The notes beneath the pieces were generated by a model. It saw nothing but the letters and a program-made list of their open reading frames with translations. It had not been told where the DNA came from and searched no databases. 20,000 nt of DNA, taken from Dirinaria sp. TL-2023a. Lineage: Eukaryota. The stretch's first letter is position 1. Every line of letters begins with the position of its first letter. Below are positions 2-20,000 of the stretch, in pieces. Position numbers and translations under genes: made by a program. The DNA is taken from NCBI GenBank assembly GCA_051941275.1, contig JAVEBF010000007.1:45252-65251 (forward strand). The letters run 5' to 3'.

Positions 2-1537
2 ATTTGTGCCGTTGCAGGGACCCCGGGCATTTCCATTGGAGTGTCATTCAAGGGCGAAGCTATCTATCGTGCGAGCTATGGTGTTAAAGACGTTGAAGCC
101 TCGTTACCTACAGATTCCGACACCGTATTCCCCATTGGAACCTTGGCCAAAACCTTTACTGCATCTGCAATAGGCATGCTTGTCCATGAGGGTTTGTTAA
201 AATGGGACACACCAATACGCGATATACTTCCCAATTTCAAAAGTAAGAATTCAACTGTGGAGGAGAATCTGACCATTGTGGATCTGCTGTCTCATAGAAG
301 TGGTCTTGCGAGATCCAATTACTGGTGGCAGGGTGCGGAAAGGGCCCTGCTTCTAGAAAAACAGGAACTGCTGCCGTTCTACAGCAAGCTTGAAAAAACA
401 GGCTCCTTTCGTGGCGACTGGGCATACAGCAATTGGGGTTACGCGGTGGCCGGCGAAGTCATAGAAAGGCTCAGCGGCATGAGCTTTGGGGCGTATGTCT
501 CCAAAAACGTACTCGAGCCGTTGCAACTCAAGAATACTACCATGCAGGCTGTAAATGCGAACTCGAACTGGGCAAAACCCTATGCTGCGCTTGACGATGC
601 ATCGCCTTTTCTTCTTCCTCGTTACTCGTTCAGCGACGAGAATATCATGAATCCGGCTATGGGTGGTGCGAGCAGCGCCAACGATCTTTTGAAATACTCC
701 ATGGCATTGCTCGAATCACATCGTTTCGAAAGTGGGAAATGTTCGGCGGTAGCAGCCCTCAAGAATGGGCTCATGCACCTCTCTGGCCATATTTTCACAG
801 CCAAAGCGACGTTGGAGAAATCGTACGCATTCGGCTTCTACCGCAGTCAGCTCCCAAGCAATGTTCTAGGCATGGGTTGGAACTCCATCTATGTCAAAAG
901 CATGCCAAAATTGGTGCCTCGTGGTCACTGTGGCCCTGTTATTGCCCACGGGGGCAGTCTTCCCGGGTATCATAGCTCCATTGCCATTCTACCTGAGATC
1001 GATGCCAGCGTCATTGTATGCACGAATTCAATAGCTTTGGGCGACACTTCCGGCTGGACTAGCCTTGCGCTCATTGAGGCTCTGATAGACACACCCACGC
1101 CGTCGGATTTTCGTAGCTTGGCCTCGGAGGCAGCTGAAAATAATGTGCGCAACGTTTCGAAGCTTCTGAAGAGCCTTGAAGAGGCAAAAAAGCCGGGCAC
1201 GACTCACAAGCCGCTCGATGAATACGTTGGACGTTACACTGACTCGCTACATGACTGGATTATCGATGTCCACAAGAAAGAGAACAACGGCCTGGAGGTT
1301 GCGTTCCAGGGGCTCGAGAGTCAAACTTGGGCATTGAGTCATTACGAATGCGACACATTCCTGTGGCTGGCCTCCCGTGAGGAGCAAGCAAAGCGGTGCA
1401 GAATGACGACGTATCCGCTGATCGGCAATCATTTCAAGATTATTTTCCAACAAAATGCAGCAGGTGCCATCGATCGACTCTGCTGGCCTCACGAAGCTGC
1501 TGTTCCAGTAAACGAGCAATACTTTACCAAATTGTAA
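2..1537 (+). CDS. Beta-lactamase/serine hydrolase family protein (peptidase S12/AmpC-like) with a C-terminal DUF3471-like domain; 5' end lies outside the window
   Basis: Frame is open from base 2 (ICAVAGTPGISIGVSFKGE...). Motifs: FPIG-T-LA-K at the SxxK position, LTIVDLLSHRSGL, WAYSNWGY (YxN), IAHGGSLPG, and C-terminal PLDEYVGRY. Stop TAA at 1535-1537. Confidence 0.9.
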   Translation: MCAVAGTPGISIGVSFKGEAIYRASYGVKDVEASLPTDSDTVFPIGTLAKTFTASAIGMLVHEGLLKWDTPIRDILPNFKSKNSTVEENLTIVDLLSHRSGLARSNYWWQGAERALLLEKQELLPFYSKLEKTGSFRGDWAYSNWGYAVAGEVIERLSGMSFGAYVSKNVLEPLQLKNTTMQAVNANSNWAKPYAALDDASPFLLPRYSFSDENIMNPAMGGASSANDLLKYSMALLESHRFESGKCSAVAALKNGLMHLSGHIFTAKATLEKSYAFGFYRSQLPSNVLGMGWNSIYVKSMPKLVPRGHCGPVIAHGGSLPGYHSSIAILPEIDASVIVCTNSIALGDTSGWTSLALIEALIDTPTPSDFRSLASEAAENNVRNVSKLLKSLEEAKKPGTTHKPLDEYVGRYTDSLHDWIIDVHKKENNGLEVAFQGLESQTWALSHYECDTFLWLASREEQAKRCRMTTYPLIGNHFKIIFQQNAAGAIDRLCWPHEAAVPVNEQYFTKL

Positions 1538-1607: not shown

Positions 1608-3599
1608 TCATTCTATGGTCACGTGCCACTCCTTGCGAATCTCTTCCGCCTTCTTAAGAAGATCTTTCCTGCCTTTCCTCGTGTTGACCACCACTGTTGC
1701 CATGTATGTCATATCCACTGCGTCTGGAGGGGTTACATACTGTCCGCGGGCAAATATATTATTATAGAGAGGAATACATTCCATCAAGTCCGGACGGGAC
1801 CGCCTCAGTTCCTCGGTAGGATCGGGTGACGTTAGAATACCACCTTTCTCGGGCATGATGAGCACTAGAGCACTCGAGTGCTGTGGACCGTGCACAAAGG
1901 GAGCCGCGAATGCCTTGAAACGTTGCTCGTCTCCTATGCAGCGAAGGACATGCATGGCATAGAGATCGACGCCATATGTCCAAGTCAAGGCCTGAAGGCC
2001 ATAGTAACCGGCGGGGCGTGGGTTCACTTCAAGCATGAAAATACCAGGTTTCGTGCTAGGGGGTGATGCTTTGAACTCCAGATCGACGGTACCACTCCTA
2101 TCAGTATAGGCCATTGAAGAGTTTTGGATCCGAGCCTCAATATGGAACAAACCTGTACGGAAACCCATGCGTAAGACACTGTCCCGAAGACACGAGACTG
2201 CCAATTCCTGCTCTGATTGCGGCAATACAGAAGGATAGACGAACATGGTCTCTTGAAAGTCATTACGTCCATGTCCCACCTTGTCGTTCTTGGAGACATC
2301 GGCAGCGCAGGGAAAGTTATCTGACACATCGGCAAAGAGGACTTCTCCGTCCCACAAAGCCATGTCGACGTCAATTTCAGGGCCGTCTATGTACGGTTCT
2401 ACCATTATCTTCGATTGGATTGGCTTGCCTGCTTCGTATCCGATGACACGTGAGCGCGCTTTCGTGACGGCGGCCAACATCTCGGCCTCTGTATTGACTT
2501 TGACTACACCCCAGCTTGTCCGACCAGTACAGGGTTTGACGACAATGGGATAATCAACCTTTAGCGAGCGCAGCCGTTGCTGCAGCTCTTCTTCGTCTGT
2601 AACGCACAAGGCAGAGTTATGATCATGCTCTAGCATCCGAGCTCCATATTTGTCCGTGGCAATCGCAAATGCAGAGGGCGGAGATGCCGGTAGTCCCAGT
2701 AGGTTGGCGGCTAGAGCGACCTTTGTGTGGAAAATATCAAAACGGGTATGCAGGCCATCTACCTTCTGCCCTTGCAAAGCATCGACGATGCGTTGAGGAA
2801 GCGCTGCGTCGGGATTCAGATCAATAGGGCAAAAAGCCTCCCGTAAATGGGCCAATGGGCCGTTGGGATCCTCGAGATAGTGGCCTGGCTGGTCCAGCAC
2901 AACAAGTCCTAACCCCATAGCCTTGATTGTCTCGTATGAGAGATTTTCAGGCAAACAGCCTACGATTGCAACCCTTTTATATCGTATAGGTTCAGGCAGT
3001 AACCATTGGATGGAGAGACGATTCGTGATCTCTAGTTCTAACTTCTCCAAACTATCCTCAATGCGTCCGCATTCCACCGATTGGACGGAGATCGCTCCTA
3101 TTGCAGAGTCTAGGATGGTTTGCAGTTGGTTGGCAGCGCTCTGCTCTTTCTCAGGTTTAAAAGCTAGAACATGCTGTCGAGGGGCGACAAATCTAGAAGC
3201 CAACTTGACAAGTTCACAACCAAAAAAGCGAAACTCTACCATGTCTGAGCGTGCGACGTATCCCTCACGAGCAGCGAGAATGACCTTGATTCCCAGGCGC
3301 TTCGCATCGGTCGCAACATCGTGCGCGCGTTGAATGAAGCTTGAGATGGCTGATTGACTCTTGGAGAGTGAAGTCGTGCAGTCATGGTCGTACCCGACCG
3401 CCGGGTGCGCATTCGAACACTCGTCTTCGATAAGGAGGTCAACCGTTCGGACGTCGAGAGACATCCTCCAGCCATTGTTGCGCCATTGGAAGTGGCTTCG
3501 CTTCGCTGGATGAAGAGGTTGTCATTAAAATGTTGTCCCAGGAACGAATTTTGGAGGTGCATGAGGATACGTACCAGAGGATCCAGCGTATTCGTTCAT
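1608..3599 (-). CDS. ATP-grasp ligase (fungal L-amino acid ligase-like), about 640 aa; join complement(3575..3599,1608..3505)
   Basis: 618-aa ORF with ATP-grasp motifs ATDKY, YPIVVKPCTGRTSWGVVKV, MVEPYIDGPEIDVD, FHIEARI and MLEVNPRPAG. A 69-nt GTACGT...CCAG intron (3574-3506) joins an upstream ATG at 3599 in frame (MNEYAGSSAKRSHFQW...). The first exon is less certain than the body. Confidence 0.88.
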
Positions 3600-3780
3600 A
3601 TTTCAGGGGGGCCTGCTATTTCGAGGGTCGCACTGGCGTCATGAAGCGTCTCGGACACCGGAACGCTCTCCCAAAATGGAAAGCAACGACAATACATTTT
3701 CACTGGCTCGCGAATTGGGAGTGAGAGCACAGTACTCAGTGGTCATCGGAATTAGCTACAAAAGAAAGTTCTTGCTGATG

Positions 3781-3914
3781 TCCGACTCGGCCGTCGTGCA
3801 AATAAGAATGTCCGCTAAGCTCGCTCAACACTAGCGGCGTTAGTGTATGGCCACCTGCCAAGATTGGGTGCCAGATAATCTGATAAAAAGCGGATCTCTC
3901 TCGGCCGAGTCGGA
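3781..3914. repeat. 13-bp perfect inverted repeat TCCGACTCGGCCG / CGGCCGAGTCGGA
   Basis: Arms at 3781-3793 and 3902-3914 are exact reverse complements. Confidence 0.8.
3872..3886 (+). promoter_or_regulatory. SreA-type GATA site ATCTGATAA (3878-3886) with an overlapping AGATAA
   Basis: CAGATAATCTGATAA contains an exact match to the ATCWGATAA consensus of fungal iron-responsive GATA repressors; it lies in the ATP-grasp/POT divergent promoter. Confidence 0.65.
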
Positions 3915-4061
3915 GATCATCAGATTAGACAACACATCTCACATGAAATCATGTCCGAAACGCATTCGACTTTCGACAATCTTTGATTTTCACGAAAGCC
4001 CGACTTCGGAAGATGTCGGACACTAGTTGCTTACTGACTGTGGCATGGGAAGGGAAGCGTA

Positions 4062-4084
4062 TTATCTGATAAGATCATCTTATC
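4062..4084 (+). promoter_or_regulatory. SreA-type GATA site ATCTGATAA (4064-4072) within a cluster of GATA cores
   Basis: TTATCTGATAAGATCATCTTATC holds three GATA cores on both strands, about 150 bp upstream of the POT start codon. Confidence 0.65.
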
Positions 4085-4227
4085 TCATCGCATCAATTGT
4101 AAGTCATCGTAATTGCTCCCCCTTATTTAGAAAAAGGCCTTTCTTTCGAGGTTTTACAGCAACACGTGCCGAGTCTCTATTTTAAAAGTTTTTTGAGCCG
4201 TTCTCAAGTCTTTCGAAAATCGATAGA

Positions 4228-6159
4228 ATGGTGACCACCGGAATTAATGAGACAAAAAGTGAAAATGAAAAGGACGTGGATGTCGAACAAAGTCACCCTG
4301 ACCCAAAACCTACCCACACATCAGCCGAAGGCGAGCCTGCGACTGAGGAGGAATTGCAAAATCTATTCCATGTCGTCGATGACATACCCATCGGGGTATG
4401 GCTTGCGGCCTTCGTGGCCTCCGCAGAACGGTTCACTTGGTTCGGCGCGACGGGTCCTCTACGTTAGGCTTGTTTTCCCAGATGTATTCAAATTACTAAT
4501 ATAGTGCAGAAAACTACCTTCAACATGATCGCCATAGCGGAATCCCAGGAGCCTTAGGGCTGCAACAAGCAACAGCTACGCTGGTCATGACCAGTTTCAT
4601 GGCTTTCTCTTATTTTACCCCTCTGCTCGGAGCAATAGTTGCAGACGCGTGCCTCGGCCGCTATAGGACGACTTTCGTGTCCGCACTGTAGGTTTCCCGT
4701 AATGAGGTTGTTCAGGACTGACATCCTTGCTAGTATTGTCTCCCTTGGGGCTCTGATTCTGAACTTGACGTCCATCCCGGCTGCAATACAGCACGAGGGT
4801 GTTGCGGCTGCCGGACTGGCCGTGGCAATGCTTTTGTTTTCATTTGGGTCTGGTGGGGTCAGAGCCGCCGTCACGCCCTTCATAGGTACGTCGGTCTCCT
4901 GCTACTTGTCAACAATCCAGCTGACTGATCTACCAGCCGACCAATACACCGAGACAGTTCCAAGGATTAAGATCTTGAAAAATGGAGAGAAAGTCGTCGC
5001 TGATCGCGAGCTTACCATCTCCTACATCTACAACGCTTATTATTGGTATGCAACGTCCATAAATACGAACGTGGTCTGATTGCTGCTATAGGATGGTCAA
5101 TATTGCGGGCCTGGCAGCCCTTGGCACAACGTTCTTGGAAAAGTATGTTGGCTTTTGGGCAGCATTTCTGCCTCCTGTTGGCGCCATGGCCCTTGGTGTA
5201 CTCCCGCTCCTGCTGTTCAGAAGAAAATTTGGTAAGTCACTATACAGCCTTCGTATCAAGATGTTGACGGTAAAATTCCAGTTAGGCATGCTCCTTCCGG
5301 CGCAGTCTTGGTCAAAGCTTGCCGAGCCATATGGCTTGCCATTAGAGGCGGATTTTGCATGAATGCAGCCAAACCAGAAAATCAGGTGGAGAAATGCTAT
5401 AGGGAAGTTCCCTGGGATGACCGGTTCATTGACGAACTCAAGCTTGCACTTTTTGCCTGCCGGATTCTGTAAGTGATCCATCTTTGAATATGCAGCGCTG
5501 ACAATGGTAGACTAGTCTTTCCATTCCATTGGCTCTGCCTTAATCAGACCTTCAACAATCTGATATCCCAAGCAGGCCAGATGGTCAATTCTGGCGTACC
5601 AAATGATGCTATCAAATCAACAAACCCTTTGACAGGCATCTTATTCTATCCGTTCGTCCAGAAACTCGTGTATCCATGGTTACGGCGACGCCACATCAAG
5701 TTTCGCTCTTGCGCCCGCATCACATTTGGTTTCTTCCTTCTAGCCGCCGCAATGGGCTATGCAGCAGGTCTACAGCAAATGATTTACAATAGCGGACCCT
5801 GCTACAACGAGCCGCTCAAATGCCCTTCATCAAATGGTGGCCGGGTTCCCAACCAGATTTCAATGTTCTTGCAGGTGCCGATTTATTCGGTTGGGGGGAT
5901 GGCAGAGTTGTTTTGCCTCCCTACCGGCACGGAGCACGCATACAACCAAGCACCGAAAAGTATGCGGTCCATTATACAGTCTGTCTCGATCGCTATGGCC
6001 GGAGTTGGTGCGTGTCTCGCAATGGCTTTTACTCCACTTGCAAAGGATCCGCACCTTGTCATTCTGTACACATGCTTGACGGGCATTCTGGTTGCTGCTA
6101 CGGCCACTTTCTACTTTTGTTTCAGGAGCATTGATAAGGAAAAAATTGAGATGCTTTGA
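4228..6159 (+). CDS. POT/PTR family proton-dependent oligopeptide transporter (PTR2-like MFS), about 549 aa, 7 exons: 4228-4462, 4510-4687, 4734-4885, 4937-5045, 5092-5231, 5282-5468, 5511-6159
   Basis: Spliced product contains AERFTWFG..PLQNYLQ, GALGLQQATAT, TPLLGAIVADACLGRY (PTR2 signature-like), PFIADQY, YYWMVNIAGL, VPWDDRFIDEL, NNLISQAGQM...GVPND and AYNQAPKSMRS. All six introns are GT-AG and keep frame. Confidence 0.92.
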
Positions 6160-6684
6160 ATTACAGCGGTTTAGATAAAAATCCCAATTCCCTTAGCAAC
6201 GAGGAGATGATACAGATCAAAAGAGAATAGAGCTTGCCAACACAATTAGAGATAGATAGAGCATCAATAGAGACTAACATGCTAGATGTGTCGAAGTTTG
6301 ACGAAGCTAAGACAAATTTGCATTCAGCAATTGAGTTCAGCTTCTGCTATCTGAGGAGCAAGATCGGTCAGAGTCTAGGTCTAAGTACCTCGTGCGTTCG
6401 GGGATTTCAAAAGTCAATAATGTAGGCTAAGGAAAGAACAGAGCTCCAGCAAAATAAAGTTTTCACGAAGTGACGATGGACCAATTCGCCATGAAAGTGC
6501 CACTGTCAAATCGACAAATCGTTAAGTGCCAAAAAAAAAAAACGCTAGAAAAAGATGGCTTTTGCAATTTTAATTCTGAAACATCGAATTGAGAAGAAAT
6601 ACATTGATAGACGATAGTAAGTACTTTAGTGATCAATGCAACATGTAGGGAGAGAAAGAATTCTGGATGTCAGCACACCCCAAA

Positions 6685-7536
6685 TCAGCTTGCTACGTCA
6701 TACGCATATCGTTCTGCATTCTGATTGCTTTCAGCCACCCAGCCATTGATGTACGTCGGGACTCCTTTGGTCGAATTTGTCGGCGCTGGAACAGGTTCCC
6801 CTAACTGCAGAAAAGCAGGTATGACCCCTGCCCACACCTTTTCCCTCATTCTCTCATCCTTCAGGTCCTTCCTATCCTCTCCTGTCGTTCCAACGCGGAT
6901 TTTGGCGCTCGCACTTTCAATCTCTACGCGCAAAATGCCCGTGCTGTTTAGCTCCGTGGCGTTTGGGTATCGGGTGTTCTCCCATCGCTGAGGAACGAGA
7001 TTGTTAGTGATGAGCTCCATAGCGTAAATTCTCTCAGCTTCGTCTTTCACAAAGTACGCATGGCCAAATACCACGGCAGAGCGGTAGTTGCAGCTGTGGT
7101 GGTTAGGTGTCAGAGCGAGGACGATGCCGTCAAGCTGAGTCGCGGCGACGCAGACCGGAATGCTGCCCGTCGGCTCTGCTCCATCTTTGGCGTCATGCGC
7201 TAGTCGCAGAAAACGCGAGGACACATAGCCGTGGAGATAGATCACGCGGCACTGATCTCGGTCTTCTGTGTCCGAATTCGGATAATTGCTGCTACATCCT
7301 AGCATGGGGAGTATGACAGGGAAGGTGGGTTTCCTTTCTTCTGCTTCTGTTTCAAAGGACACGTGTAGAATAGGAGTTTCGTCCACGATTGTATTGACCG
7401 TATGGTAGTCATATTTACCTCCATTCGCGGCGCCTGTCAGTTTCTCGCTTATTAAATAGCGGAGAAGTCCCAAACCTCTGTTTCTATATCTGTTAACGGT
7501 GTTCAATTTGGTTTTCTCCCATCCTTGATACTCCAT
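6685..7536 (-). CDS. Pyridoxamine 5'-phosphate oxidase-like / NimA-family flavin-nucleotide-binding split-barrel protein, about 264 aa; join complement(7476..7536,6685..7418)
   Basis: Motifs NTVNRY..RGKYD...IVD..PILHVSF, PVILPMLG, IYLHGYVSSR, PVCVAATQLDGIVLALTPNHHSCNYRSAVVFG, SASAKIRVG and VWAGVIP. ATG at 7536; probable 57-nt intron at 7475-7419. Confidence 0.88.
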   Translation of the reverse strand: MEYQGWEKTKLNTVNRYRNRGLGLLRYLISEKLTGAANGGKYDYHTVNTIVDETPILHVSFETEAEERKPTFPVILPMLGCSSNYPNSDTEDRDQCRVIYLHGYVSSRFLRLAHDAKDGAEPTGSIPVCVAATQLDGIVLALTPNHHSCNYRSAVVFGHAYFVKDEAERIYAMELITNNLVPQRWENTRYPNATELNSTGILRVEIESASAKIRVGTTGEDRKDLKDERMREKVWAGVIPAFLQLGEPVPAPTNSTKGVPTYINGWVAESNQNAERYAYDVAS

Positions 7537-8052
7537 ATCCGCTGTGACTGATTTTGGGTATAATGAGCAGATTCGCAATAGAGCAATCGGATATTATACT
7601 TACATGACTGAGAAATACCGTTGACTGTCCTGTCTAGAGTTGAAGAGTTCCCGAATATTGACAAAAGCAAGTACGGCTTAGCAAATTTCGGCCGAGACCT
7701 TTAGACAATCATAGCGCGTGTCCACTCGAGCATACTACATGGTAAGCCTTGCGGCGCGGCTCATCATTTAATTAATTTGCATATGCATATGCCATTACGT
7801 CCCACGCATTGACCTGTAACGGCGCCAAGCCACCATTAAACGGTCGACAGAGTGGGGTGTTTTGGCATACGGTGTGGTGGTCGTCTGACGATCGTATTGG
7901 ACTCTCGGACAGGCGATCGACCTTTCCATACACCGTGGCCCCTGTAGGTGCTCATAAGTCCGACTAGTCAGGCTTGGAAGAGCATTATTATAGCCGTAAG
8001 TAAAGGGAGCCCTTGCCCAAATCGTCCTTCGCACCACCTGAGGCTGCCAGCC

Positions 8053-9852
8053 ATGGCGCCCGTACTGATGCTCCCCCAGCCTCCTCCAACAGGGTATCCT
8101 ATTCCCAAAACACACCATGCTATCTCGGTACAAATGACAACATGGCTGGACATGCAAGGATTGATGTTGGGTGACCCTCGCGTCAAGAAGGTCCAGCAGA
8201 TTGGCTACCCTCGCTCATTCCTCCACCAGGATGTTGTAAAAGTATACCCCCCACAGACTCAACATCGCGACTGCTAATGATCACTTGCTAGCTTCACAAT
8301 TCATGTCTCCTACTGCGCGGAAAGCCGAATGAATCGTGTCATTTGTATCCATCAAAAAGACATGCCGCCAGCTCCAAAGCCTTTATCCTCGAAACAGCCA
8401 CCGATGTCGAAGACAGTGTCGAGGTTTGCGCCATTAACTTCCCAGCGGATGCAGAGTCAGCCATTACTGGCCTCTTTCAAGGTTCTATCATCCGACTCTA
8501 CGCGGTTTTCTTCCCCAAGCAGATGATGAACATCGCCATGTCATTCTGGCGCCTCACAGGAACCGGCATCTCCTCCAGGCTTGCCGAGAGTCTCCATGAA
8601 CACATGGAATATCAGCGCCAAGTCGCGTCAAGCTCTGATCTTGATCAAGATTTTATTCTCTCGGACGCTGCTGTTTCCAATACTATCTGCGAGCGTATTA
8701 CCTATCTTCTTAAGCGCGCCTCTCTACAGCCAGCCGTCAGCGAGAAGTTATCACCATCTGACGTTTTCCTTTATCCCACTGGCATGTCAGCTATTTATCA
8801 TTGCAATTTCCTCCTCCAAAGCTGGAAGCCTGCTGAAAGTATCGTATTCGGCTTTCCTTACGAGCTCACACTGAAACTGCTACAAACGTACGGGATATCC
8901 TGCCGGTTCTATGGCCTTGGGACTCCAGGGGAGTTGGATGAAATGGAAACATATCTTCAATTGGAGGCTAGTCGTGGAAGGCGAGTGCAATCGGTCTGGT
9001 GCGAATGTGCTTCCAATCCCCTTCTTCGCAGTGTTGACCTCAAACGTATACGGTCGCTGGCCGATAAATATGGGTTCCAGGTGGTTGTTGATGATACGAT
9101 TGGCAGCTTTGCGAACGTGGATCTGTTGGGAACTGCTGATATAATCATCACATCTTTGACGAAAAGCTTCAGTGGCTGCGCCGACGTAATGGCCGGCAGG
9201 TAATCTCTCATCCCAGAACCTGTTTGCTCAAACGATAACTTTTTCCAGCATCGTCTTGAACCCGGCATCGCCTTTCTACACTACGATGAAAAGAACGCTT
9301 TCTCTAACCTACCGCAATGAGCTCTACGCTGCCGACGCTGTAAAGCTTGAAAGCAATAGCAGAAAGTTCCTTCAGCGGGCTTCAAAAATGAACCAAAACG
9401 CTTCTTACTTGGTTTCCCTGCTCCAAAAACAGGCTCTAAGCCCGTCAAGTGTCCTGAAGCATGTCTACTATCCTTTGACATGCTGGTCATTGCCAAACTA
9501 TCGTGAGATGATGAGGCCGGTCAGTCCCGAGTTCACTCCAGGGTATGGAGGGCTGTTTACGCTTGAGTTTGAAAGTGAAAAATCAGCCTCAACGTTCTTC
9601 AACGCGCTAGACTTACACAAGGGTCCATCGCTGGGAGCCAATATCACGTTGGCTCAGCCGTACGTGCAGACCGTATTCGCAAGAGATAAAGCATGGGCCG
9701 CAAGTTACGGCTTAGATGAGACGATTATTAGGATATCTGCTGGCTTGGAGGATGAGAAGGTTCTAGGAAAAGCATTTCAGAAAGCCTTACGACTCGCGGA
9801 CTGTACCAAGATTGGTGCCTTGAGACACGGGAATTACGATGGCTGTATTTAA
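8053..9852 (+). CDS. PLP-dependent cystathionine gamma-synthase-like enzyme (Cys/Met metabolism family, Str2-like), about 566 aa; exons 8053-8241, 8292-9199, 9249-9852
   Basis: N-terminal GYPIP..HAISVQMTTW...GDPRV....GYPRSFLH, then VFLYPTGMSAIY, VFGFPY, CECASNPLL, VVVDDTIGSFAN, the PLP-lysine motif SLTKSFSG.ADVMAGS, KGPSLGANITLA and IRISAGLED. Introns GTATAC..CTAAT..TAG and GTAATC..CAG keep frame. Confidence 0.92.
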
Positions 9853-10137
9853 TTAACCCTCGAGGGAAAAACCTGACGTGCCTGAAAAGGCACACTTGAG
9901 CATATCGCACTCATAGAAGAGATCTACACCTACGACCCTGCCTAGAGAGTTGCCAGGATTCAAAGGATTGAAGACGAAGAGTAAAGCCGAGGGAAGACTG
10001 CGTAAACGCCGAGCAAGCGTGTAAACCCCACGTTCGGAATTTGCCCTACTTTTGTAGCTTTCATGAGATCATTATTGAATGGTAGACTGATTTAGTCGGT
10101 CTTGGCTTCGGTACTCTAAGCGAACCATTTGTAATTT

Positions 10138-10146
10138 TTATCAGAT
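10138..10146 (-). promoter_or_regulatory. SreA-type GATA site ATCTGATAA upstream of the ferric reductase
   Basis: TTATCAGAT on the + strand reads ATCTGATAA on the - strand, about 470 bp upstream of the FRE start codon. Confidence 0.65.
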
Positions 10147-10615: not shown

Positions 10616-13063
10616 ATGAAATTCTTCGTCGGCCTAGCCCTAACGCTTTGTGTGCCGCTCGTTTCAACAGAGTCCAGGAGTGATCCTTCGCCGAATCAGT
10701 ATTGCTTTGCGGCGTGTCAAACTACCTTTAGTGGACAGAATTTCAGCGGCTCTCCATCGACCGCTGACGGAGATACTGCTGGAAACTGTGCAAATGCTCT
10801 CTTTGTGCGGTCAACTTTTCTCTGCGCCAAAGCCTACTGTCCGGATGACCAAGCTCGCGCGGGGTACGCCTACGCGAACGAACAATGCGAGTCGAGTGGA
10901 TACAGTCTTCCTAGTCTATCCATTGTGGACAATGTGACCATGGAAAATATCCAAACCATGCAAACTCTTCAATATGGAGACATTCCACCTGTGATCAATA
11001 GTACAATCATTCCATCTGCAGACCTCTTCCAACTTGGATTACGTACTATGGTAATCATTTCTTTTTCCGTGACTTACATCTCTGACTTAGCTTCAGGTGT
11101 GGTGGTACGGAGGCTTTGCAAATCATCTTTGGTATTCGTATGTAAGCCTTGCCATAACACGGATGAAAGCTGAAGTGGATTAGAAAGGCGATATTCATCT
11201 TCTGGGGTATCATTATCGGGCTCGGTACCGGAGGCAACCTCCTTTCTATCCTCAAAAGTAGGATACAGGCTCCAAACAACAAAGATCTTGAACGCCGAGC
11301 AATTTCTCAATCGGTGCCACCAGCTAGGCGCTTGTGGGACCAAATTCGTGCCCATTTCCTTCTACCAGCCTTGTACGGGAAGCGCTGTAACGAAGTAAAA
11401 TGGCAGGCGACTGTCCCACCTCGATCGGAATCCGTGGTCATCATCATGCACATTATTTTGAATGTAATCTTATGTGCCGTGTCATACTCCGCATTCTCTG
11501 GCAACCTTTACTGGGACAGCAGATCAATTCAGATCTGGCGCTTGTTCTCAGATCGTACTGGGTACATGGCGTACGCCAATTTTACTGTCTTCTTCGCGTT
11601 TGCTATCCGAAACAATATTCTGATATGGCTGACTGGATGGGAATTCCCGACTTTCAATCGGTTTCATCGCTGGGTTGCTCGCGTGGCTACTTTAGAGGCT
11701 CTGCTGCACTCGATTGGATACACTGTTTATGACCTCCTAGATAGTTTGGAGGCGTACCAGGCGGATTTTGCAAGCCGATACTGGTGAGTAGCAGAAATCT
11801 CGACCGATGAGTGGAACAAAACCCCGATTGATGAATTTGAGTTAATGAGTTTTAGGTGGACGGGCGTTATCGCCACAATTTGTATGTGTCTAGTGCTCGC
11901 GTTCTCGATTAAATGGCTGCGAGCCAGATCTTACGACGTCTTCTTGCTATTACACATCGCACTATCACTTACAACGCTCGTTTGCCTCTTTTACCACACC
12001 AAGATCTTCTATGGAAAGTATGACGGCTTTTTGTGGCCTTGCGTCGCCTTTTGGGGCTTCGACAGGCTTTGCCGTCTGGCACGTATCCTATATTTCACTC
12101 GCGGAGCCGATGTGGTGAGAACCATGGTGGATTTTGACGATGGAAGTGGAATAGTCCGCATTGATGCAACCAACACATTCCTACCGAGGAAAACCCCAGG
12201 AGGCGTTCATTTCTTTTTGTAAGGCCTGGCATCTTATGTGGATCACTTTCGCTGATACAAGGATAGATATTCCCCCTTCGCGCTGCTGGGATGGCAGAGT
12301 CACCCATTCACACTAGTGCGCTGGCTCGAGTCAGGCCAGTCTAGCACAGGTTCGGCGTCCCCAGCTTTGAGTACAAGTTTAGAGGAAAAGGGGCCGAGCG
12401 TGGAGAGTCCAGCTCAAGCACAACACACATCAATGCCGGAAGGCTCGCCAAGATATAGCTTCCTGGTGCGCCCGATGAACGGATACACTGCTCGGCTTCG
12501 TCGCAAGGTGATCGCAAACTCGGGGCCCGCGTCAATGAAGCTTCTTTACGAGGGGCCTTATGGAAAGGTCCCCAGGGTTGATCGCTTCGCCAACATCTCT
12601 CTGCTGATCGGTGGCAGCGGAATATCTGTTGGTATTTCGTATATCTACAAAGCTCTCGCCGGAAACCCTGAAACTGTGGTAAACCTTGTGTGGACCTGTA
12701 GAAAGTCGCCACTGTATATGGATTCCATCATGAACAAGGAGCTCAGGTCTGCGCTCGACACAGGTCGGCTGACGGTTGATGCGTAAGCAAGGCATCCTTT
12801 TTGTTTGCACGGACTGACGAGGACGTAGATTCTTCACCGGTGGCCCTTGGAAAATTAAAGAAATACCATGCAGAACCGTCTCAGAAGGTCGACCCGACAT
12901 AGCTACCGCGGTACACCACGCGATTACGCGACGGCGGGGATCATTGGCGGTGGTGGTTTGTGGACCAGCGTCGTTGATGGATGATGCGCGAGCTGCGTTT
13001 GTTTCTGAACTAAAGCATGGGGAGACTGATATCGAGCTTTTCTTGGAATCGTTCAACTGGTGA
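10616..13063 (+). CDS. Ferric/cupric reductase (FRE family flavocytochrome b), about 729 aa; exons 10616-11050, 11097-11137, 11184-11783, 11856-12218, 12267-12782, 12829-13063
   Basis: Signal peptide MKFFVGLALTLCVPLVST followed by a Cys-rich extracellular N-terminus. Also RNNILIWLTGW, heme-ligand His pairs FHRWVAR...LLHS and LHIALS...FYHT, FAD motif QSHPFT, EGPYG, LLIGGSGIS, VCGP and C-terminal ESFNW. Five GT-AG introns keep frame. Confidence 0.92.
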
Positions 13064-14323
13064 GAAGTTGCTCGAAACGGTCACCCTCGGATTACCGACT
13101 GGCAGATCAAGTTCGCAAGTCTTTCCTTGGGTGATCATGAGTGGATTCACATATTCTGAGCTGAGCGTTGCCTTGCAATGGCTTGACAAGTATTCCGTAT
13201 CATGATTTCCTTTTGGAACGTTATGCAGAAAATTACTTTTTGGATGATGATGCATCGTCTAGAAAGATTCTCGCAGATAAACACCGTGGAATCGGGGGCC
13301 GAGGTGTCACATTGATCTTTCACTCGTTCTGTTATTAGAGTGCCATAGCAGCATTAGGGATCCAAGGATCCAGTTCTGCGAGACTATCTTTCATACCATC
13401 ATAAGGTTTCTTGTTTTGCCATGTCATACAACTTGACATATCACATAGCTTTTGATACTGATTGAACCTTATTCAGTTTTCACTTTTTAGTATTTGGTTC
13501 AGTCTTGACCTCTTGCTTCTCGCAACACGTTTCCGTCTATCAATATATTAGAAATTATTGAACTGGGTGACCTTATGGAGGTCGCATAACGTTCTATTCT
13601 TCATACTTCTATGTGTGTAAGTTGGTTATTTACATGGCAACCTTTATGTGCGGAGGTCTATACCCCGATTGGGCCTAGTGCCCTCTCTGCCGGGTATGCC
13701 CTATGCCGCTCACTTTCTAATAGAAATAACATTGACTATTAAAATCTGTCTAGAGGCATTCTAGGTGCCCGCATAGACATTAGGTATTTCCCTAATTGAT
13801 TGCCACAAAGGCGAAAATTATGAAAGACATCAAAGAAAAATATCTAGCACCCATGATACAACATAGTAAACATCATGTGTTGGTTAACCCTGGGCCTCTC
13901 GGGCAATCCTCGTTTCAGCCCTATTATAAGGCTAATATCCAACACTGGCTCTCATATTCTCTTCTGACGTCTTGGATCTTTAACGACTTGTCTATTTGAC
14001 AGTGGTACTATGGTGGCGAACCAGTCCATAGTTTTTTCGTCAAATCGTCTTTGCTTGAAACCCGCATTCTGTCAGGACGGAACAACGACTGACTATACTT
14101 GATTTCGAGGTATCAAAAGGGTGGAATGTACTAGATGAAAATGAGAAGTTGGGAGATATTGGAAATTGACATTTTCGATGAAGTCGAGGGGAGAAATATC
14201 AGTAGATTCTGGCACCTTAACTACAAATATCCATGCGAAATCCCAACTGTAGAGCGATGATCTGGTGGCAGTGGAATTTTGCAACAAATTTCTTCTCCTC
14301 GCCATCGCTCGGCCCAACAGCCA

Positions 14324-14949
14324 TCAGCCGCGAGTCTCGCTAACATTATGTTTTCCCGCATTCAGACCAAAGCCCAACATGTGCGCCTTCTTCTGACTAA
14401 GCTCAGTCATATTCGCATAGAGCTGCCCATTGTGAGATTCTCTTGCTAGCTGATACTCCGTTCCATTGATGACGTGGAAGTGCTTGTCGAACACGACTGT
14501 TCCACCGCCGGGCGGGCTCCGCTTGCTGTTCCGGAAGGGATACCACTTACTCCCCGCAAAGCCTACGGTGCCGTCCTGATTGTGGCATCCTGTTGCCAAC
14601 TGACCGAGAGGGTTCCTACACTCGAAGCCGACCGGGCCAGTAAACGGCTGAACCTGGACGCCCACGCCAGGCCACGCTTGGGTAGACTCGTACTCGGTGC
14701 CCGGCACACCTGCGCAGCAGGTATCGAGGTTGATGTTGGTGCATTTGACGCCATTGCTAGGGTCAATAGTGCCCTCAACGGGATCAAAGGGTTGGCAACC
14801 CGTGTTGACATAGAGGTAGAGATCGTTCTGAGCTTTGACTAGGAGACCGCCGAAGAGTGTGAATACTGCAAGTCAGAATACCGTTAGTATGTGGTGGTCA
14901 TAGAAATGGCCACAGTAGAAGGTTACTACGAACCGAGTCCAGTCTTCAT
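14324..14949 (-). CDS. Small secreted Cys-containing protein of unknown function, 185 aa; join complement(14934..14949,14324..14865)
   Basis: ATG at 14949 and a 68-nt GTTCGT..CTAAC/CTGAC..CAG intron give MKTGLVFTLFGGLLVKA-QNDLYLYVNTGCQP...CTNINLDTCC...: a signal-peptide-like N-terminus, 6 Cys and an internal KR site. Confidence 0.8.
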
Positions 14950-16398: not shown

Positions 16399-16701
16399 AT
16401 GCATTCATCCACCATCTTAACCTTCCTCTCTGCCGTCGCACTTCTCTCCACTGGCGCAATGGCAACAGTCAAGGAGAATAGCAAATGCCAATCCCAAGAG
16501 AATGGCGTTCGAACTTGCTCCGACAACCTTTACGATATTGTAAGCCCGTTCAAAAACTGCCTTCCGTTGACAACGCATCAGCAAAGCCACCTACTGACAC
16601 CCATGCAGGTCGAATGCGACGGAAATAACTGGGCTTACCAATGCCACTGTGGCCAGCCGAGCTGTATCAACGGTGCATGTTCGGACTGCAACGGAAATTA
16701 A
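16399..16701 (+). CDS. Small secreted 8-Cys protein (effector-like), 77 aa; exons 16399-16539 and 16609-16701
   Basis: Signal peptide MHSSTILTFLSAVALLSTGAMA; 69-nt GTAAGC..CTGAC..CAG intron; mature peptide of about 55 aa with 8 Cys; TATA-like TATAAG about 170 bp upstream. Confidence 0.85.
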   Translation: MHSSTILTFLSAVALLSTGAMATVKENSKCQSQENGVRTCSDNLYDIVSPFKNCLPLTTHQQSHLLTPMQVECDGNNWAYQCHCGQPSCINGACSDCNGN

Positions 16702-17813: not shown

Positions 17814-18764
17814 TCACAATAAAAGCACCGTCGGAATCAGCATTGCCAAGCCTAGAGCGCTTCCTGTCACGACGGTCGCTACTCCTGACGGGGCACCACC
17901 CGTAAAAGGCGATGGCGATGGGCTACTTGGCGCTGTAGTGTTTCCAGACGCATTCAGCGGATTAGTATGGTTCTCGAAGATGCCTCCAACGGGTTGACAA
18001 AGTTTCTGCGCCAAAGCGGATTCCCCTATGATTAACAGATCAGCTTTCCAGATCACAAACGGACGTAGAGCTAAAGACATCTCACTGATTAGGTCGTCTA
18101 GGCTGCAAGTAGCATGCTCGCATGTATCGATTGCCGTCACTGCAGGGTTGCCAAGACAGATGCATGCTCTGCTTGAGAGGGTGCCGCAACCGCCGAAGCC
18201 GTACTGTTGCTGACATTGTTGCTGCAGACAAATAAGAGTCCTGACTTATGGATACGGGATTGCACAACTCACCGCGCATCGGGGATAATTAGAGACCTCC
18301 GTCGGGTCTCTGCCAGCAGTGGCATCAATCGCAAGCGGCGTCGCCGACGCTATCGCGGCCGAGACCGCCGAGCTGAGAGTCGCATTGCTACTGTACAAAG
18401 GACCGCAGGCTTCTTGAGACAGTGCGTTCGTCTCTGGGCGACTTTCGTCAGAACCATCTTCTGCATTGAATAAGCATTTACATACTTTGTCTGTCTTGCG
18501 TGTTGCAGAGTACAGCTTGACACGCCGATGTCGAGGCTCGGAACGATGAAGAGCATAGTTGGTTTAGGTCGCTCGCATTTGATAATCCAATTTGCAGCTG
18601 ATATTGACAGGATTGCTGGATTCGTCAACAAAGTATTTAATATAGTGTATTCTGGAACTTACGGCGCAGATGGGAAAATCAGTAAGACTCTGCGCGGATG
18701 AAGTCGCGATCAGGCTTATTGCCACGATTGCTGAGCGAAGTCCCATACTAATACTCATGGTCAT
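17814..18764 (-). CDS. GPI-anchored cell-surface protein with two CFEM-like domains, about 246 aa; exons 18764-18663, 18615-18486, 18433-18273, 18221-18086, 18025-17814
   Basis: Signal peptide, then domain 1 (PICAQSC...DLNQLC...C....C...QEAC) and domain 2 (PRCAQQC...GC.......CIC...........C....C...............C). These are followed by a Ser/Pro/Thr linker, FTGGA and a hydrophobic C-terminal tail. Four GT-AG introns keep frame. The start could be Met1, Met3 or Met7. Confidence 0.88.
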
Positions 18765-20000
18765 ACGGTGATGGAGATTCTCTCTTGAGAATTTGTAGAT
18801 TGAGAGTGGTGGAGGTCATGCTCATTTGTAACATCAGGGTGGCGGTTGGTGCAGTTTAAAGTTTTGTCGCATATATCGTAGCCTGGACCAACCATTTCCG
18901 GTGCACGATGAGTTCATGCTGCATTTTGCGTCAAAATCGTCAACGATATCCGTTTCTGCCAGGGGATTATGCAGGCAAACTCTTCCGGGGGACGACTCCG
19001 TCGAGGCCACCCTGATTCATTTCGCCTGCGGCGATTCCTGTCGGAGGGACCTTCCTAACCGATTGCGACAAGGGAGTCGGCGAAAATTGACAACGGACCC
19101 TGATTAAGTCGAAAATGCTGGACAACAAAGTCAGGTGGAAGCATAGAAAGACTCAACGGACTTGGTGGAGTCGTTTTGGGATCCAGATGTCTGTGACGGA
19201 AGATTTGGTCGTGGAAGGTACTCGGTCTGAACATCAACAGGGTATTGACGACCTTCTTTGGCTGTGTTGTATTCTGATGTGGATGAATACGTGACGATTT
19301 TGGCTGATTTGTATCTGTCGAGTGGCGAATACCGAGATGAAAAAACGACTCGAAAGGAGAAAGCGGTCTTGGGTTGAGGGGACGACGTCGACGTACGAAT
19401 CACGATGATGTCGAGCAGCGCAACCATGACGCCTTTGATCACAGCGTACGACGCTAATCTCGAGAGGCAGACGTGGTTTCAATCACCTCCGAAACAATCG
19501 TCGTCGATAGTCGTTGTCGGAATGATCGGTCGACACGATCAGAAACAGTGGTCGCGAGTAAAATTACAATCGTTTTGAGGACAACCTCAGTACAATCGTT
19601 TCGAAAGCAACACAAGTTCCCAGAGCAATTTGATTTAGAAACAATGTTCATCAAAAATCAGGCACCGATAGGGAACCGCATTGTATGTCCAGGTACTTGC
19701 CGAAGAAGTCCATGTACTTGTGTGTCCAGATGGGAATAGATCTTTGTAAAACCGGGACCGGGTGGACCGGTTCGCGACCAAGAATGTGGAAAGTAGTTGA
19801 CGAAAACGGTTAGCCTCCGCAAGATGGCAGTCCTCGGAAACGCTAGTGCTCAGAGTAATAGGTAATGGATAATAGATATAGGCAGTGGCCCGGATAGTAT
19901 ACATGGCAGTCCGCAGAATGGCAGTCCGCGGATAGGTAAACCGCAGGGCTCCGGGTAATAGTAATATCGGGTATATAGTAACCCACAATTCCTCGCTTTT

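Follow-up and report, generated by a model that had tools for sequence, protein, structure and literature searches.

ATCWGATAA elements beside an ATP-grasp/POT gene pair and an adjoining ferric reductase gene: possible iron control of a conserved 'no-core-enzyme' biosynthetic cluster in a lichen fungus

Could a small biosynthetic gene cluster of a lichen-forming Lecanoromycete be under iron control, and, if so, what might it produce? This question is raised by a stretch of 20,000 nucleotides from Dirinaria sp. TL-2023a (contig JAVEBF010000007.1; hereafter the window, meaning the whole stretch analysed), in which a conserved fungal biosynthetic cluster of the 'no-core-enzyme' kind lies next to a ferric reductase (FRE) gene. 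In the initial annotation, it was suggested that three perfect SreA-type (ATCWGATAA) sites tie an ATP-grasp/POT gene pair and the FRE to iron control. The genes of the window are as follows.

2-1537, + strand: beta-lactamase-fold protein with DUF3471 (Pfam), 5' end beyond the window, convergent with the ATP-grasp gene
1608-3599, - strand: ATP-grasp ligase gene, 640 aa (exon 1, 3599-3576; intron, 3575-3507; exon 2, 3506-1608)
4228-6159, + strand: POT/PTR2 gene, 549 aa, 7 exons (4228-4462, 4510-4687, 4734-4885, 4937-5045, 5092-5231, 5282-5468, 5511-6159), hand-built model with GT..AG introns of 42-51 nt
6685-7593, - strand: PNPOx-like flavoprotein ORF (Pyridox_ox_2, Pfam E=3.1e-28), start codon not fixed
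8068-9852, + strand: CndF-like PLP enzyme of the gamma-substitution type, 561 aa (exons 8068-8241, 8292-9196, 9246-9852)
10616-13063, + strand: ferric reductase gene, multi-exon (Ferric_reduct, FAD_binding_8, NAD_binding_6)

The initial calls of the ATP-grasp, POT, flavoprotein, PLP enzyme and FRE genes were borne out by domains and solved relatives. The ATP-grasp gene, which carries Pfam ATP-grasp_4 and ATPgrasp_N, gave a protein model that matched P0002, an NCBI protein from a Dirinaria MAG, at 100%, and an RNA contig of a relative connects position 3506 to exon-1-like letters. Its best solved relative was the bacterial L-amino acid ligase (Lal) BL00235 (3vot, E=1.3e-10 over residues 164-454), with which it has the ATP-grasp fold with ATPgrasp_N in common. 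On the basis of its ATP-grasp domain, its N-terminal Lal-type domain and its similarity to a solved Lal, the enzyme appeared to be L-amino-acid-ligase-like, and an amino-acid ligation activity is predicted. Two features set it apart from BL00235: some 190 aa of additional conserved sequence at the N-terminus, and a long C-terminal portion. An E-x-N-x-R stretch, which we take to be the Mg/ATP site, was invariant in the alignment (A1; E501, N503 and R505). In the family tree, the window enzyme fell into one 32-row clade (SH-aLRT 98) with a protein of Uncinocarpus reesii labelled 'ATP-grasp enzyme uncJ' in UniRef, to which it is 49% identical over the full length, and a CndF-like PLP gene was linked to other members of this clade. 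L001, the metagenome locus most closely related to uncJ, lacked a POT gene, and the motif was absent from 1.4 kb upstream. Relatives of the ATP-grasp family, apparently serving as tailoring ligases, were also observed in ordinary NRPS, DMATS and ABC clusters.

The PLP enzyme showed a 100% match to NCBI protein P0153, and both introns of its gene were spanned by RNA contigs. It matched CndF of citrinadin biosynthesis over the full length, SLTK lysine motif included (8zif, E=2.6e-65), whereas the cluster context differs, and it was also BesB-like. The PNPOx-like flavoprotein gene, whose product has uncharacterised flavin-binding proteins as solved relatives, is divergent from the PLP gene. The ATP-grasp and POT genes are likewise divergent, with one shared promoter. 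The last exon of the POT gene was assigned to PTR2 (PF00854, E=2.6e-27), and homologues were 52-64% identical across it. The ExxER motif in TM1 of POT proteins has a role in proton coupling; the window POT has ASAERF, that is, AxxER where ExxER would be expected. The first Glu was also missing in all 13 closer homologues aligned and in the POTs of four distant loci (L002, L003, L014 and L022), and the distant POT P0152 retained EFCERF. Given that all five readable cluster-linked POTs are without this residue, they are possibly not ordinary peptide importers. Finally, all three domains of the ferric reductase (FRE/NOX) family were present in the FRE, and RNA contigs span its introns (12218/12267 among others).

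Synteny of the ATP-grasp, POT and PLP genes, judged from NCBI locus tags or contigs of equal size, was observed across several fungal classes: Dirinaria (Q9191_000170 and Q9191_000174), Fulgogasparrea (Q9201_002594 and Q9201_002591), Chaetothyriales (DV738_g4731, g4732 and g4734), Cudoniella (g8283 and g8291), Xylaria (FHL15_009933 and FHL15_009927) and A. leporis, where all three lie on a contig of 54907 nt. In a Xylaria gene model located six locus tags from the ATP-grasp homologue, the beta-lactamase-fold/DUF3471 architecture is fused to the PLP enzyme. Among 34 metagenome loci, the POT gene adjoined an ATP-grasp homologue in four. An FRE was linked to one of the four other POT-linked loci (L002; gene order FRE, POT, ATP-grasp), and since the window FRE and the L002 FRE are only 31-34% identical over aligned core stretches, the two may have been recruited independently. 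Spliced transcripts were found in a relative, in which RNA-library contigs (90-99% alike to the window; one sample of one study) span introns of the ATP-grasp, POT, PLP and FRE genes. Among the window ORFs scanned with Pfam, there was no NRPS, NIS, nicotianamine synthase (NAS) or N-hydroxylase gene, and a tblastn search of the window with the NAS of locus L016 found nothing.

The GATA-type sites are listed below.

3873-3886, + strand: GATA site 1, AGATAA with an abutting exact ATCTGATAA at 3878-3886 (letters, AGATAATCTGATAA)
3919-3927, + strand: one-mismatch site ATCAGATTA, overlapping a 21-nt inverted repeat (right arm)
4062-4072: GATA site 2, palindrome TTATCTGATAA, with ATCTGATAA on the + strand (4064-4072) and ATCAGATAA on the - strand (4062-4070)
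4080-4088, - strand: extra GATA core GAGATAA (ATGAGATAA), 8 bp from site 2
10138-10146, - strand: GATA site 3, exact ATCTGATAA, upstream of the ferric reductase gene

All three perfect sites of the initial annotation are present, as are its one-mismatch site and its extra GATA cores (at 3873 and, on the - strand, at 4062-4070 and 4080-4088). The ATCWGATAA consensus was matched by the three exact ATCTGATAA and one overlapping ATCAGATAA, and no further exact ATCTGATAA was found elsewhere in the window. Our own gene models put the ATP-grasp ATG at 3599 and the POT ATG at 4228, at distances of 279 and 342 bp, respectively, from site 1 and of 463 and 156 bp from site 2; site 3 lies 470 bp 5' of the FRE ATG (10616) and 286 bp beyond the PLP stop (9852). 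The exact sites are confined to two promoters, 156-470 bp from ATGs, which agrees with the suggested placement in intergenic promoter DNA. A second GATA core accompanies site 1 (AGATAA) and site 2 (the palindrome, plus TTATC 8 bp on); none was found as an exact core beside the motif at site 3. The flavoprotein/PLP promoter had been described as having no such site, and the intergenic region 7594-8067 indeed contained no WGATAA; should iron regulate the whole cluster together, other means would be needed at this promoter.

We also measured how far these counts exceed chance. Three exact ATCTGATAA were found in the window versus 0.20 expected, and none of 200 dinucleotide shuffles reached three. 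When only intergenic DNA (about 7.5 kb) was simulated (second-order Markov model, 5000 runs), the mean was 0.19 locations and P(>=3) = 0.001. All motif matches fell into two of the nine intergenic intervals. The ATC prefix, with a chance rate of ~1 in 64, was present on 4 of the 20 WGATAA in the window, all four inside the ATP-grasp/POT and FRE promoters; the former has five WGATAA in 630 bp, three of them with ATC (in two independent places). When up to one mismatch to ATCWGATAA was allowed, 17 matches were found versus 9.8 expected and 7 of 200 shuffles reached 17, and the relaxed pattern being without clear enrichment, the signal is carried by the exact sites only. In 363.6 kb of other fungal loci, ATCWGATAA occurred seven times (0.019 per kb) at four independent locations, one of which is in the promoter of an obviously metal-related gene; thus, the exact 9-mer by itself is a modest predictor. 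ATCWGATAA was found between or beside the POT and ATP-grasp genes in none of L002, L003, L014 and L022, which are distant relatives (ATP-grasp 35-37% identical), close orthologues (62-81% identity) being outside the comparison. The POT/ATP-grasp intergenic stretch of L002 has a one-mismatch ATCTGAGAA and a single HGATAR only.

The initial identification of ATCWGATAA as the SreA-type consensus was correct, as it equals the SreA-regulon motif given in the excerpted A. fumigatus literature (PMC2610380, PMC10294635). According to the excerpts of the first study, this 9-mer is 5.4-fold over-represented in the 49-gene SreA regulon and agrees with in vivo sites of Urbs1 and Fep1, and a ferric reductase and a putative peptide transporter, the gene types also found in the window, are among the SreA-repressed genes (PMC2610380). 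In the functionally dissected bidirectional ftrA/fetC promoter, the excerpts of the second study describe the SreA-assigned element as ATCAGATAA plus a second GATAA (PMC10294635), a composite as in sites 1 and 2, and the sites of both bidirectional promoters lie a few hundred bp from the genes. In contrast, the candidate targets in the window include the ATP-grasp ligase of a biosynthetic cluster, a type of target that the A. fumigatus excerpts do not report (PMC2610380, PMC10294635), and the host is a lichen-forming Lecanoromycete, whose sites are candidate elements. We consider the SreA reading of the sites plausible and give iron control of the ATP-grasp/POT pair roughly an even chance.

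SreA-type iron control of ligase, transporter and reductase was the best explanation as a whole, and it may be right or wrong with about equal probability. The ATP-grasp/POT and FRE promoters would each carry composite, partly palindromic ATCWGATAA elements for two-finger repressors of the SreA/Urbs1/Fep1 type. Under iron sufficiency, an SreA orthologue would occupy these elements and repress all three genes, which would be derepressed together under iron shortage. The ligase probably couples a non-proteinogenic amino acid, supplied by the PLP enzyme, to another amino acid, and the POT may move the dipeptide-like product, or peptides generally.

It is unlikely that the ATP-grasp/POT promoter has AreA-type nitrogen sites or other single-finger GATA sites, through which the peptide transporter and the adjacent gene would respond to nitrogen status, with the FRE site as the only iron element. 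Each ATCWGATAA contains a legal HGATAR (TGATAA or AGATAA), the TGATAA core being also a legal AreA-type site, and five WGATAA in 630 bp is a density typical of GATA-controlled promoters generally; the lack of the extended motif in the four distant POT-linked loci points in the same direction. In addition, fungal peptide transporters are nitrogen-regulated. However, a single-finger factor does not explain the ATC extension on three of those five WGATAA, the identical 9-mer is found again in the FRE promoter, and one of the genes repressed by SreA in A. fumigatus, according to the excerpted report, encodes a putative peptide transporter (PMC2610380).

A special case of SreA-type control, the main idea of the initial annotation, appeared rather improbable; here the cluster would yield a small metal chelator derived from amino acids, with neither NRPS nor NIS enzymes involved. 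Such a scheme, in which the compound would be assembled by the ligase and PLP enzyme and carried by the POT, and its iron set free by the reductase, is consistent with iron-type sites on the ligase, transporter and reductase genes, with the FRE beside POT and ATP-grasp in the distant L002 and with the missing Glu of the five cluster-linked POTs. It is also favored by a paralogous ATP-grasp clade (L015, L016 and L020) whose genes are divergent from an NAS gene (Pfam NAS, E=5.1e-58), the sole ATCWGATAA of the locus lying between the two genes together with a second GATA core. These loci resemble the window in family, architecture, divergent pairing and motif arrangement, whereas their ATP-grasp proteins are 31% identical to that of the window and are paired with NAS rather than with a POT or PLP enzyme. 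The transfer of 3-amino-3-carboxypropyl units, common to CndF-type enzymes and nicotianamine synthase, would fit the same idea. On the other hand, the window has no chelator-type enzyme (NRPS, NIS, NAS or N-hydroxylase), the NAS-linked clade belongs to the other major branch of the family tree and does not adjoin the clade of the window, and one FRE neighbour among 24 scanned loci is not very unlikely by chance. Moreover, the apparent tailoring ligases in NRPS, DMATS and ABC clusters argue against it, and the product of U. reesii uncJ, in the same clade, may be unrelated to metals.

A dipeptide antimetabolite, in which a PLP-made non-proteinogenic amino acid is masked by ligation, is similarly doubtful. 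The POT and the beta-lactamase-fold hydrolase would then serve export, uptake or self-protection, and iron control, if any, would be incidental competition biology. The bacterial L-amino acid ligase as the best solved relative, the CndF- and BesB-like PLP enzyme and the conserved membership of hydrolase and peptide transporter all point to such a product, and bacterial dipeptide antibiotics follow the same masking logic. However, a resistance-type duplicate of a target enzyme was not seen in the window, and the presence of a linked ferric reductase in both the window and L002 would be left unexplained. Chance occurrence of three non-functional 9-mers is very improbable: although the relaxed motif is not enriched and exact sites in other fungal loci also fall outside promoters, three sites were reached in no shuffle and in 0.1% of the intergenic simulations, and all of them lie 156-470 bp 5' of the start codons of genes with precedented SreA control.

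Beyond SreA-type control of ligase, transporter and reductase, a broader proposal, which we regard as a long shot, is that some clades of this ATP-grasp family build small amino-acid-derived metallophores free of NRPS and NIS, with the CndF-made block, the ligase, the atypical POT, the co-regulated FRE and SreA control acting jointly. In the clade of the window, the CndF-like enzyme would make an aminocarboxypropyl-type building block that the ligase amidates, the POT without the ExxER Glu would carry the compound, and iron release would fall to the co-regulated ferric reductase, with SreA controlling the whole. If so, the NAS-linked paralogues would represent a second version of the same idea.

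The initial annotation had placed three exact sites of SreA type in the window, the SreA/Urbs1/Fep1 proteins being iron-sensing GATA repressors of fungi, together with a one-mismatch site and extra GATA cores. A motif scan found all of them, and no further exact copy was present anywhere in the window. The sites are as follows:

3878-3886, plus strand: site 1, exact ATCTGATAA
4064-4072, plus strand: site 2, exact ATCTGATAA
10138-10146, minus strand: site 3, exact ATCTGATAA, 470 bp upstream of the ATG of the ferric reductase (FRE) gene
3919-3927: one-mismatch ATCAGATTA

The three exact copies of ATCTGATAA compare with 0.20 expected in the 20-kb window, and none of 200 dinucleotide-preserving shuffles contained at least three. 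A second-order Markov simulation of intergenic DNA only (roughly 7.5 kb of the window, by the gene models used) gave a mean of 0.19 locations, with at least three in 0.1% of 5000 runs. The window has 56 HGATAR and 20 WGATAA cores; the ATC prefix was seen on four, all within two promoters, and the exact motif occupies two of the nine intergenic intervals. When up to one mismatch was allowed, no clear enrichment could be observed (17 occurrences versus 9.8 expected; 7 of 200 shuffles reached 17), and the enrichment signal rests on the exact sites. Motif density was four sites per 1.4 kb in the two promoters versus seven in 363.6 kb (0.019 per kb) across L001-L034, metagenome loci carrying fungal relatives of the ATP-grasp enzyme of the window. 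The excess of the motif is thus real and well beyond chance. The longest string shared inside the first promoter was 12 nt, and an origin of the sites as mobile-element copies could be ruled out because no longer repeat was common to the three. A 21-nt inverted repeat (3773-3793/3902-3922, 90% complementary, 108 nt between the arms) flanks site 1 and extends on the right into the one-mismatch site at 3919.

The genes concerned, as called from the sequence, agreed with Pfam and structure-relative matches for the ATP-grasp enzyme, peptide transporter (POT), flavoprotein, PLP enzyme and FRE:

2-1537, plus strand: beta-lactamase-fold/DUF3471 gene, convergent with the ligase gene
3599-1608, minus strand: ATP-grasp gene, short first exon and one intron, ATPgrasp_N and ATP-grasp_4 domains
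4228-6159, plus strand: POT/PTR2 transporter, divergent from the ATP-grasp gene (Pfam PTR2 E=2.6e-27, last exon)
6685-7593, minus strand: PNPOx-like flavoprotein ORF
8068-9852, plus strand: PLP enzyme, three exons, 100% match to NCBI protein P0153, transcribed away from the flavoprotein ORF
10616-13063, plus strand: ferric reductase with all three FRE domains

Sites 1 and 2 both lie within the 630-bp ATP-grasp/POT intergenic DNA. AGATAA abuts site 1 directly upstream to form the composite AGATAATCTGATAA, whereas site 2 is the palindrome TTATCTGATAA, the minus strand of 4062-4070 reading ATCAGATAA, with a further TTATC 8 bp past it. The flavoprotein/PLP intergenic region, noted earlier as having no such site, was found to have no GATA core at all. 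To our knowledge, only SreA-type proteins among fungal GATA factors have two fingers, which would explain a partly palindromic site; a single-finger nitrogen factor of the AreA type would not need one. That the POT promoter is under GATA control of a purely nitrogen type is unlikely in our view, although the distribution of the motif in distant loci (see below) is not what deeply conserved iron control would predict.

The assignment of ATCWGATAA as an SreA-type consensus agrees with its 5.4-fold over-representation in the upstream DNA of 49 A. fumigatus genes putatively regulated by SreA, and in vivo sites of SreA orthologues (U. maydis sid1, S. pombe str1 and fio1-fip1) fit it as well, according to Schrettl et al. 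(2008; PMC2610380). In the bidirectional ftrA/fetC promoter, dissected in a 2023 mBio article (PMC10294635), the element assigned to SreA is TTATCAATCAGATAA, in which a second GATAA accompanies the extended motif; like it, sites 1 and 2 have a composite form in a bidirectional promoter. In the light of these precedents, the reductase site is ordinary. The POT site has a precedent in a putative peptide transporter of A. fumigatus (PMC2610380; Afu1g12240 was met in this article alone), whereas an ATP-grasp ligase in this role appears to be new, as far as the literature was searched. Among the matches listed from the SreA, HapX and siderophore literature, ATP-grasp was not mentioned, which is a weak negative. 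The most likely reading, to which we give about an even chance, is that the ligase/POT and reductase promoters carry SreA-type iron elements and that iron shortage would derepress part of a conserved ATP-grasp/PLP cluster.

The ATP-grasp ORF was 100% identical to an NCBI protein from a metagenome-assembled genome of the lichen fungus Dirinaria sp., and the window is accordingly fungal. Its sole solved sequence relative was BL00235, an L-amino acid ligase of bacterial origin (3vot, E=1.3e-10), and the ESM Atlas groups it with ascomycete clusters auto-named 'ATP-grasp domain-containing' and 'carnosine synthase 1'. For the PLP enzyme, a full-length alignment was obtained with CndF (8zif, E=2.6e-65), in which the SLTK lysine motifs coincide; no literature linking CndF with ATP-grasp was found. 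The POT model (seven exons, 549 aa) was built by hand. Further observations concern the reductase side of the window. The signal-peptide-bearing N-terminal part of the FRE (10616-11170, plus strand) gave a weak CFEM-like match (E=0.084), and a gene at 17814-18815 (minus strand) encodes a CFEM-domain protein that has a signal peptide and ends in a hydrophobic tail of GPI-anchor type; its domain is interrupted by an intron, hence the partial match (E=0.014). CFEM proteins are tied to haem/iron uptake and are frequently encoded close to ferric-reductase-like genes; upstream of this gene, no exact ATCWGATAA was found. Two small cysteine-rich ORFs between the FRE and CFEM genes (14324-14872, minus strand; 16400-16701, plus strand) have signal-peptide-like starts and no Pfam match.

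Public RNA data were available from one lichen metatranscriptome sample (three runs, X1-X3, one study). The RNA contigs were 90-99% alike to the window and therefore come from a relative. They bridged introns of the PLP gene (8241/8292 and 9196/9246), of the FRE (12218/12267 and others), of the POT (5468/5518, with 7 unlike nucleotides between) and of the CFEM gene (18025/18087, 18221/18273, 18433/18486 and 18615/18663), and in an ATP-grasp contig position 3506 was joined to 30 nucleotides resembling exon 1 and then to a piece matching 3605-3730. Thus, spliced PLP, FRE, POT and ATP-grasp transcripts are present in the thallus of a relative, in data with no iron contrast. None of the RNA contigs listed covered 4003-4669 or the sites at 3878 and 4064; one contig extends beyond 9964. 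One contig from one of the three runs skipped 49 nt with GT..AG ends within a conserved coding region of the ATP-grasp gene (3236-3284, minus strand); the joint from 3235 to 3285 was set aside, since the frame would break; a contig from another run was continuous there. Another 49-nt stretch (13669-13717) was matched by very deep contigs (165-250x, two runs) whose flanks were unlike the window. A tRNA was ruled out by the tRNA scan, which gave no genes in the window, and the stretch is probably a short shared element.

The ATP-grasp, POT and PLP genes form a conserved cluster. Evidence for synteny came from NCBI locus tags and from equal contig sizes in protein searches, equal size indicating co-location without proving it:

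Dirinaria: ATP-grasp Q9191_000170, PLP Q9191_000174
Fulgogasparrea: ATP-grasp Q9201_002594, PLP Q9201_002591
Chaetothyriales sp. CBS 135597: ATP-grasp DV738_g4731, POT g4732, PLP g4734
Cudoniella: ATP-grasp g8283, PLP g8291
Xylaria flabelliformis: ATP-grasp FHL15_009933, PLP FHL15_009927 (gene model that also includes a fused beta-lactamase/DUF3471 portion)
A. leporis: ATP-grasp, POT and PLP each on a contig of 54907 nt, which suggests co-location

A metagenome scan with a 32-sequence alignment yielded 80 loci, including L001-L034 (27-47% identity). Of these 34 loci, four have a POT next to the ATP-grasp homologue, many of the rest being too short to judge; it was divergent in L002 and L022, 6 kb away in L014 and downstream in L003. 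Pieces of the window FRE, PLP, PNPOx and beta-lactamase proteins had no tblastn match in L001-L034 at E<=1e-5.

At 4411-4428 (exon 1), the window POT reads ASAERF in place of the TM1 ExxER motif. The first Glu was missing in all 13 closer homologues aligned and in the POTs of L002, L003 (AAQRL), L014 and L022, and one distant homologue retains EFCERF. The ExxER motif is required for proton coupling, and plant POT-family members that do not have it are facilitators or exporters. If this role applies here, the cluster POT may do something other than simply import peptides, which we regard as a lead. Absence of this Glu throughout the POT clade travelling with the ATP-grasp family may point to a change in coupling or in the direction of transport.

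The POT-linked loci, whose ligases are only 35-37% identical to that of the window, bear on how far the motif is conserved. None of the four had ATCWGATAA between or beside the POT and ATP-grasp genes; the L002 intergenic stretch contained one one-mismatch ATCTGAGAA and a single HGATAR, and no exact ATCWGATAA was present anywhere in the 15-kb L002 locus. This absence counts against deep conservation of iron control, although the ligases compared are distant. Apart from the site in the L016-type loci described below, the three independent background sites were located beside a retrotransposon remnant, between convergent sulfotransferase and TauD genes, and at a weak ABC-like ORF, either next to it or within it. 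With background sites mostly beside unrelated genes, the exact 9-mer alone is a modest predictor.

A Pfam scan of 116 of the 127 flanking ORFs of at least 140 aa in 24 loci (leaving out seven in L008, which nearly duplicates L006, and four scanned before) revealed the order ferric reductase (all three domains), POT, ATP-grasp and haem-dependent oxidative N-demethylase-like gene in L002 (4463-13267). This reductase was missed by tblastn with the window FRE. The reductases were 31-34% identical over aligned core stretches, and the linkage therefore does not simply reflect synteny by descent. The remaining three POT-linked loci showed no reductase. Because one such neighbour by chance is not very unlikely among 24 loci, linkage of a reductase to the POT/ATP-grasp pair in a second, distant fungus is taken as suggestive. 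The scan also showed an odd biosynthetic-cluster mix in L006 (4415-19864; L008 is alike), where the ATP-grasp homologue lies beside an NRPS, an aminotransferase and an amine oxidase, with extra porphobilinogen deaminase and ALA dehydratase copies.

In L016 (7205-11818), L015 and L020, the ATP-grasp homologue was divergent from a nicotianamine synthase (NAS) gene (Pfam NAS, E=5.1e-58), the NAS piece of the L015/L020 relatives being about 91% identical to that of L016. The only ATCWGATAA of the L016-type locus lies in the shared NAS/ATP-grasp intergenic DNA, where another GATA core is found at a distance of 9 nt. Two Cupin_5 genes were seen further along in L016. Nicotianamine is a metal chelator; thus, one clade of the ligase family is tied to metallophore chemistry with the same motif. 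A quick tree of 86 ATP-grasp proteins was computed by maximum likelihood, midpoint-rooted for drawing only and omitting protein hits no longer than 520 aa, L026 (because of its short overlap with the match) and L008, L010, L013, L017, L018, L020, L023, L029, L030, L031 and L034. The window enzyme fell in a 39-row clade (SH-aLRT 100) with PLP-linked lichen, Chaetothyriales, Cudoniella, Dothideomycete, Xylaria and Aspergillus proteins, and with Uncinocarpus reesii 'uncJ'. L002, L022 and L003 fell in the neighbouring group of the same half of the tree, and POT linkage is thus a trait of that half. The NAS-linked clade was in the other half, alongside clades from NRPS, DMATS and ABC-transporter clusters. 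The NAS link is therefore that of a paralogue and would bear on the window only by analogy. It should be noted that 'uncJ' seems to come from a named, presumably published cluster; no publication behind it was found in the literature searched, and a commentary describing the ank cluster (RCDPS, NIS, PLP and ATP-grasp) does not mention U. reesii (PMC11610942).

On the basis of the enzymes present, our best guess for the product is a dipeptide-like compound with a non-proteinogenic amino acid. A metallophore, for which the NAS-linked paralogues offer an analogy, is doubtful, and an antimetabolite is equally so.

Fungal high-affinity iron uptake relies on NRPS hydroxamate siderophores, NIS-made rhizoferrin in Mucorales and reductive uptake. 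If SreA-type control of the ligase/POT/reductase module is true, the iron-starvation regulon would at least gain a conserved 'no-core-enzyme' cluster, and low iron would be a cheap cue to wake an otherwise silent cluster in slow-growing lichen fungi. The FRE-linked and NAS-linked loci provide independent places for testing the idea of an iron module, which at best may reveal fungal metallophores of a new class and a new role of POT transporters.
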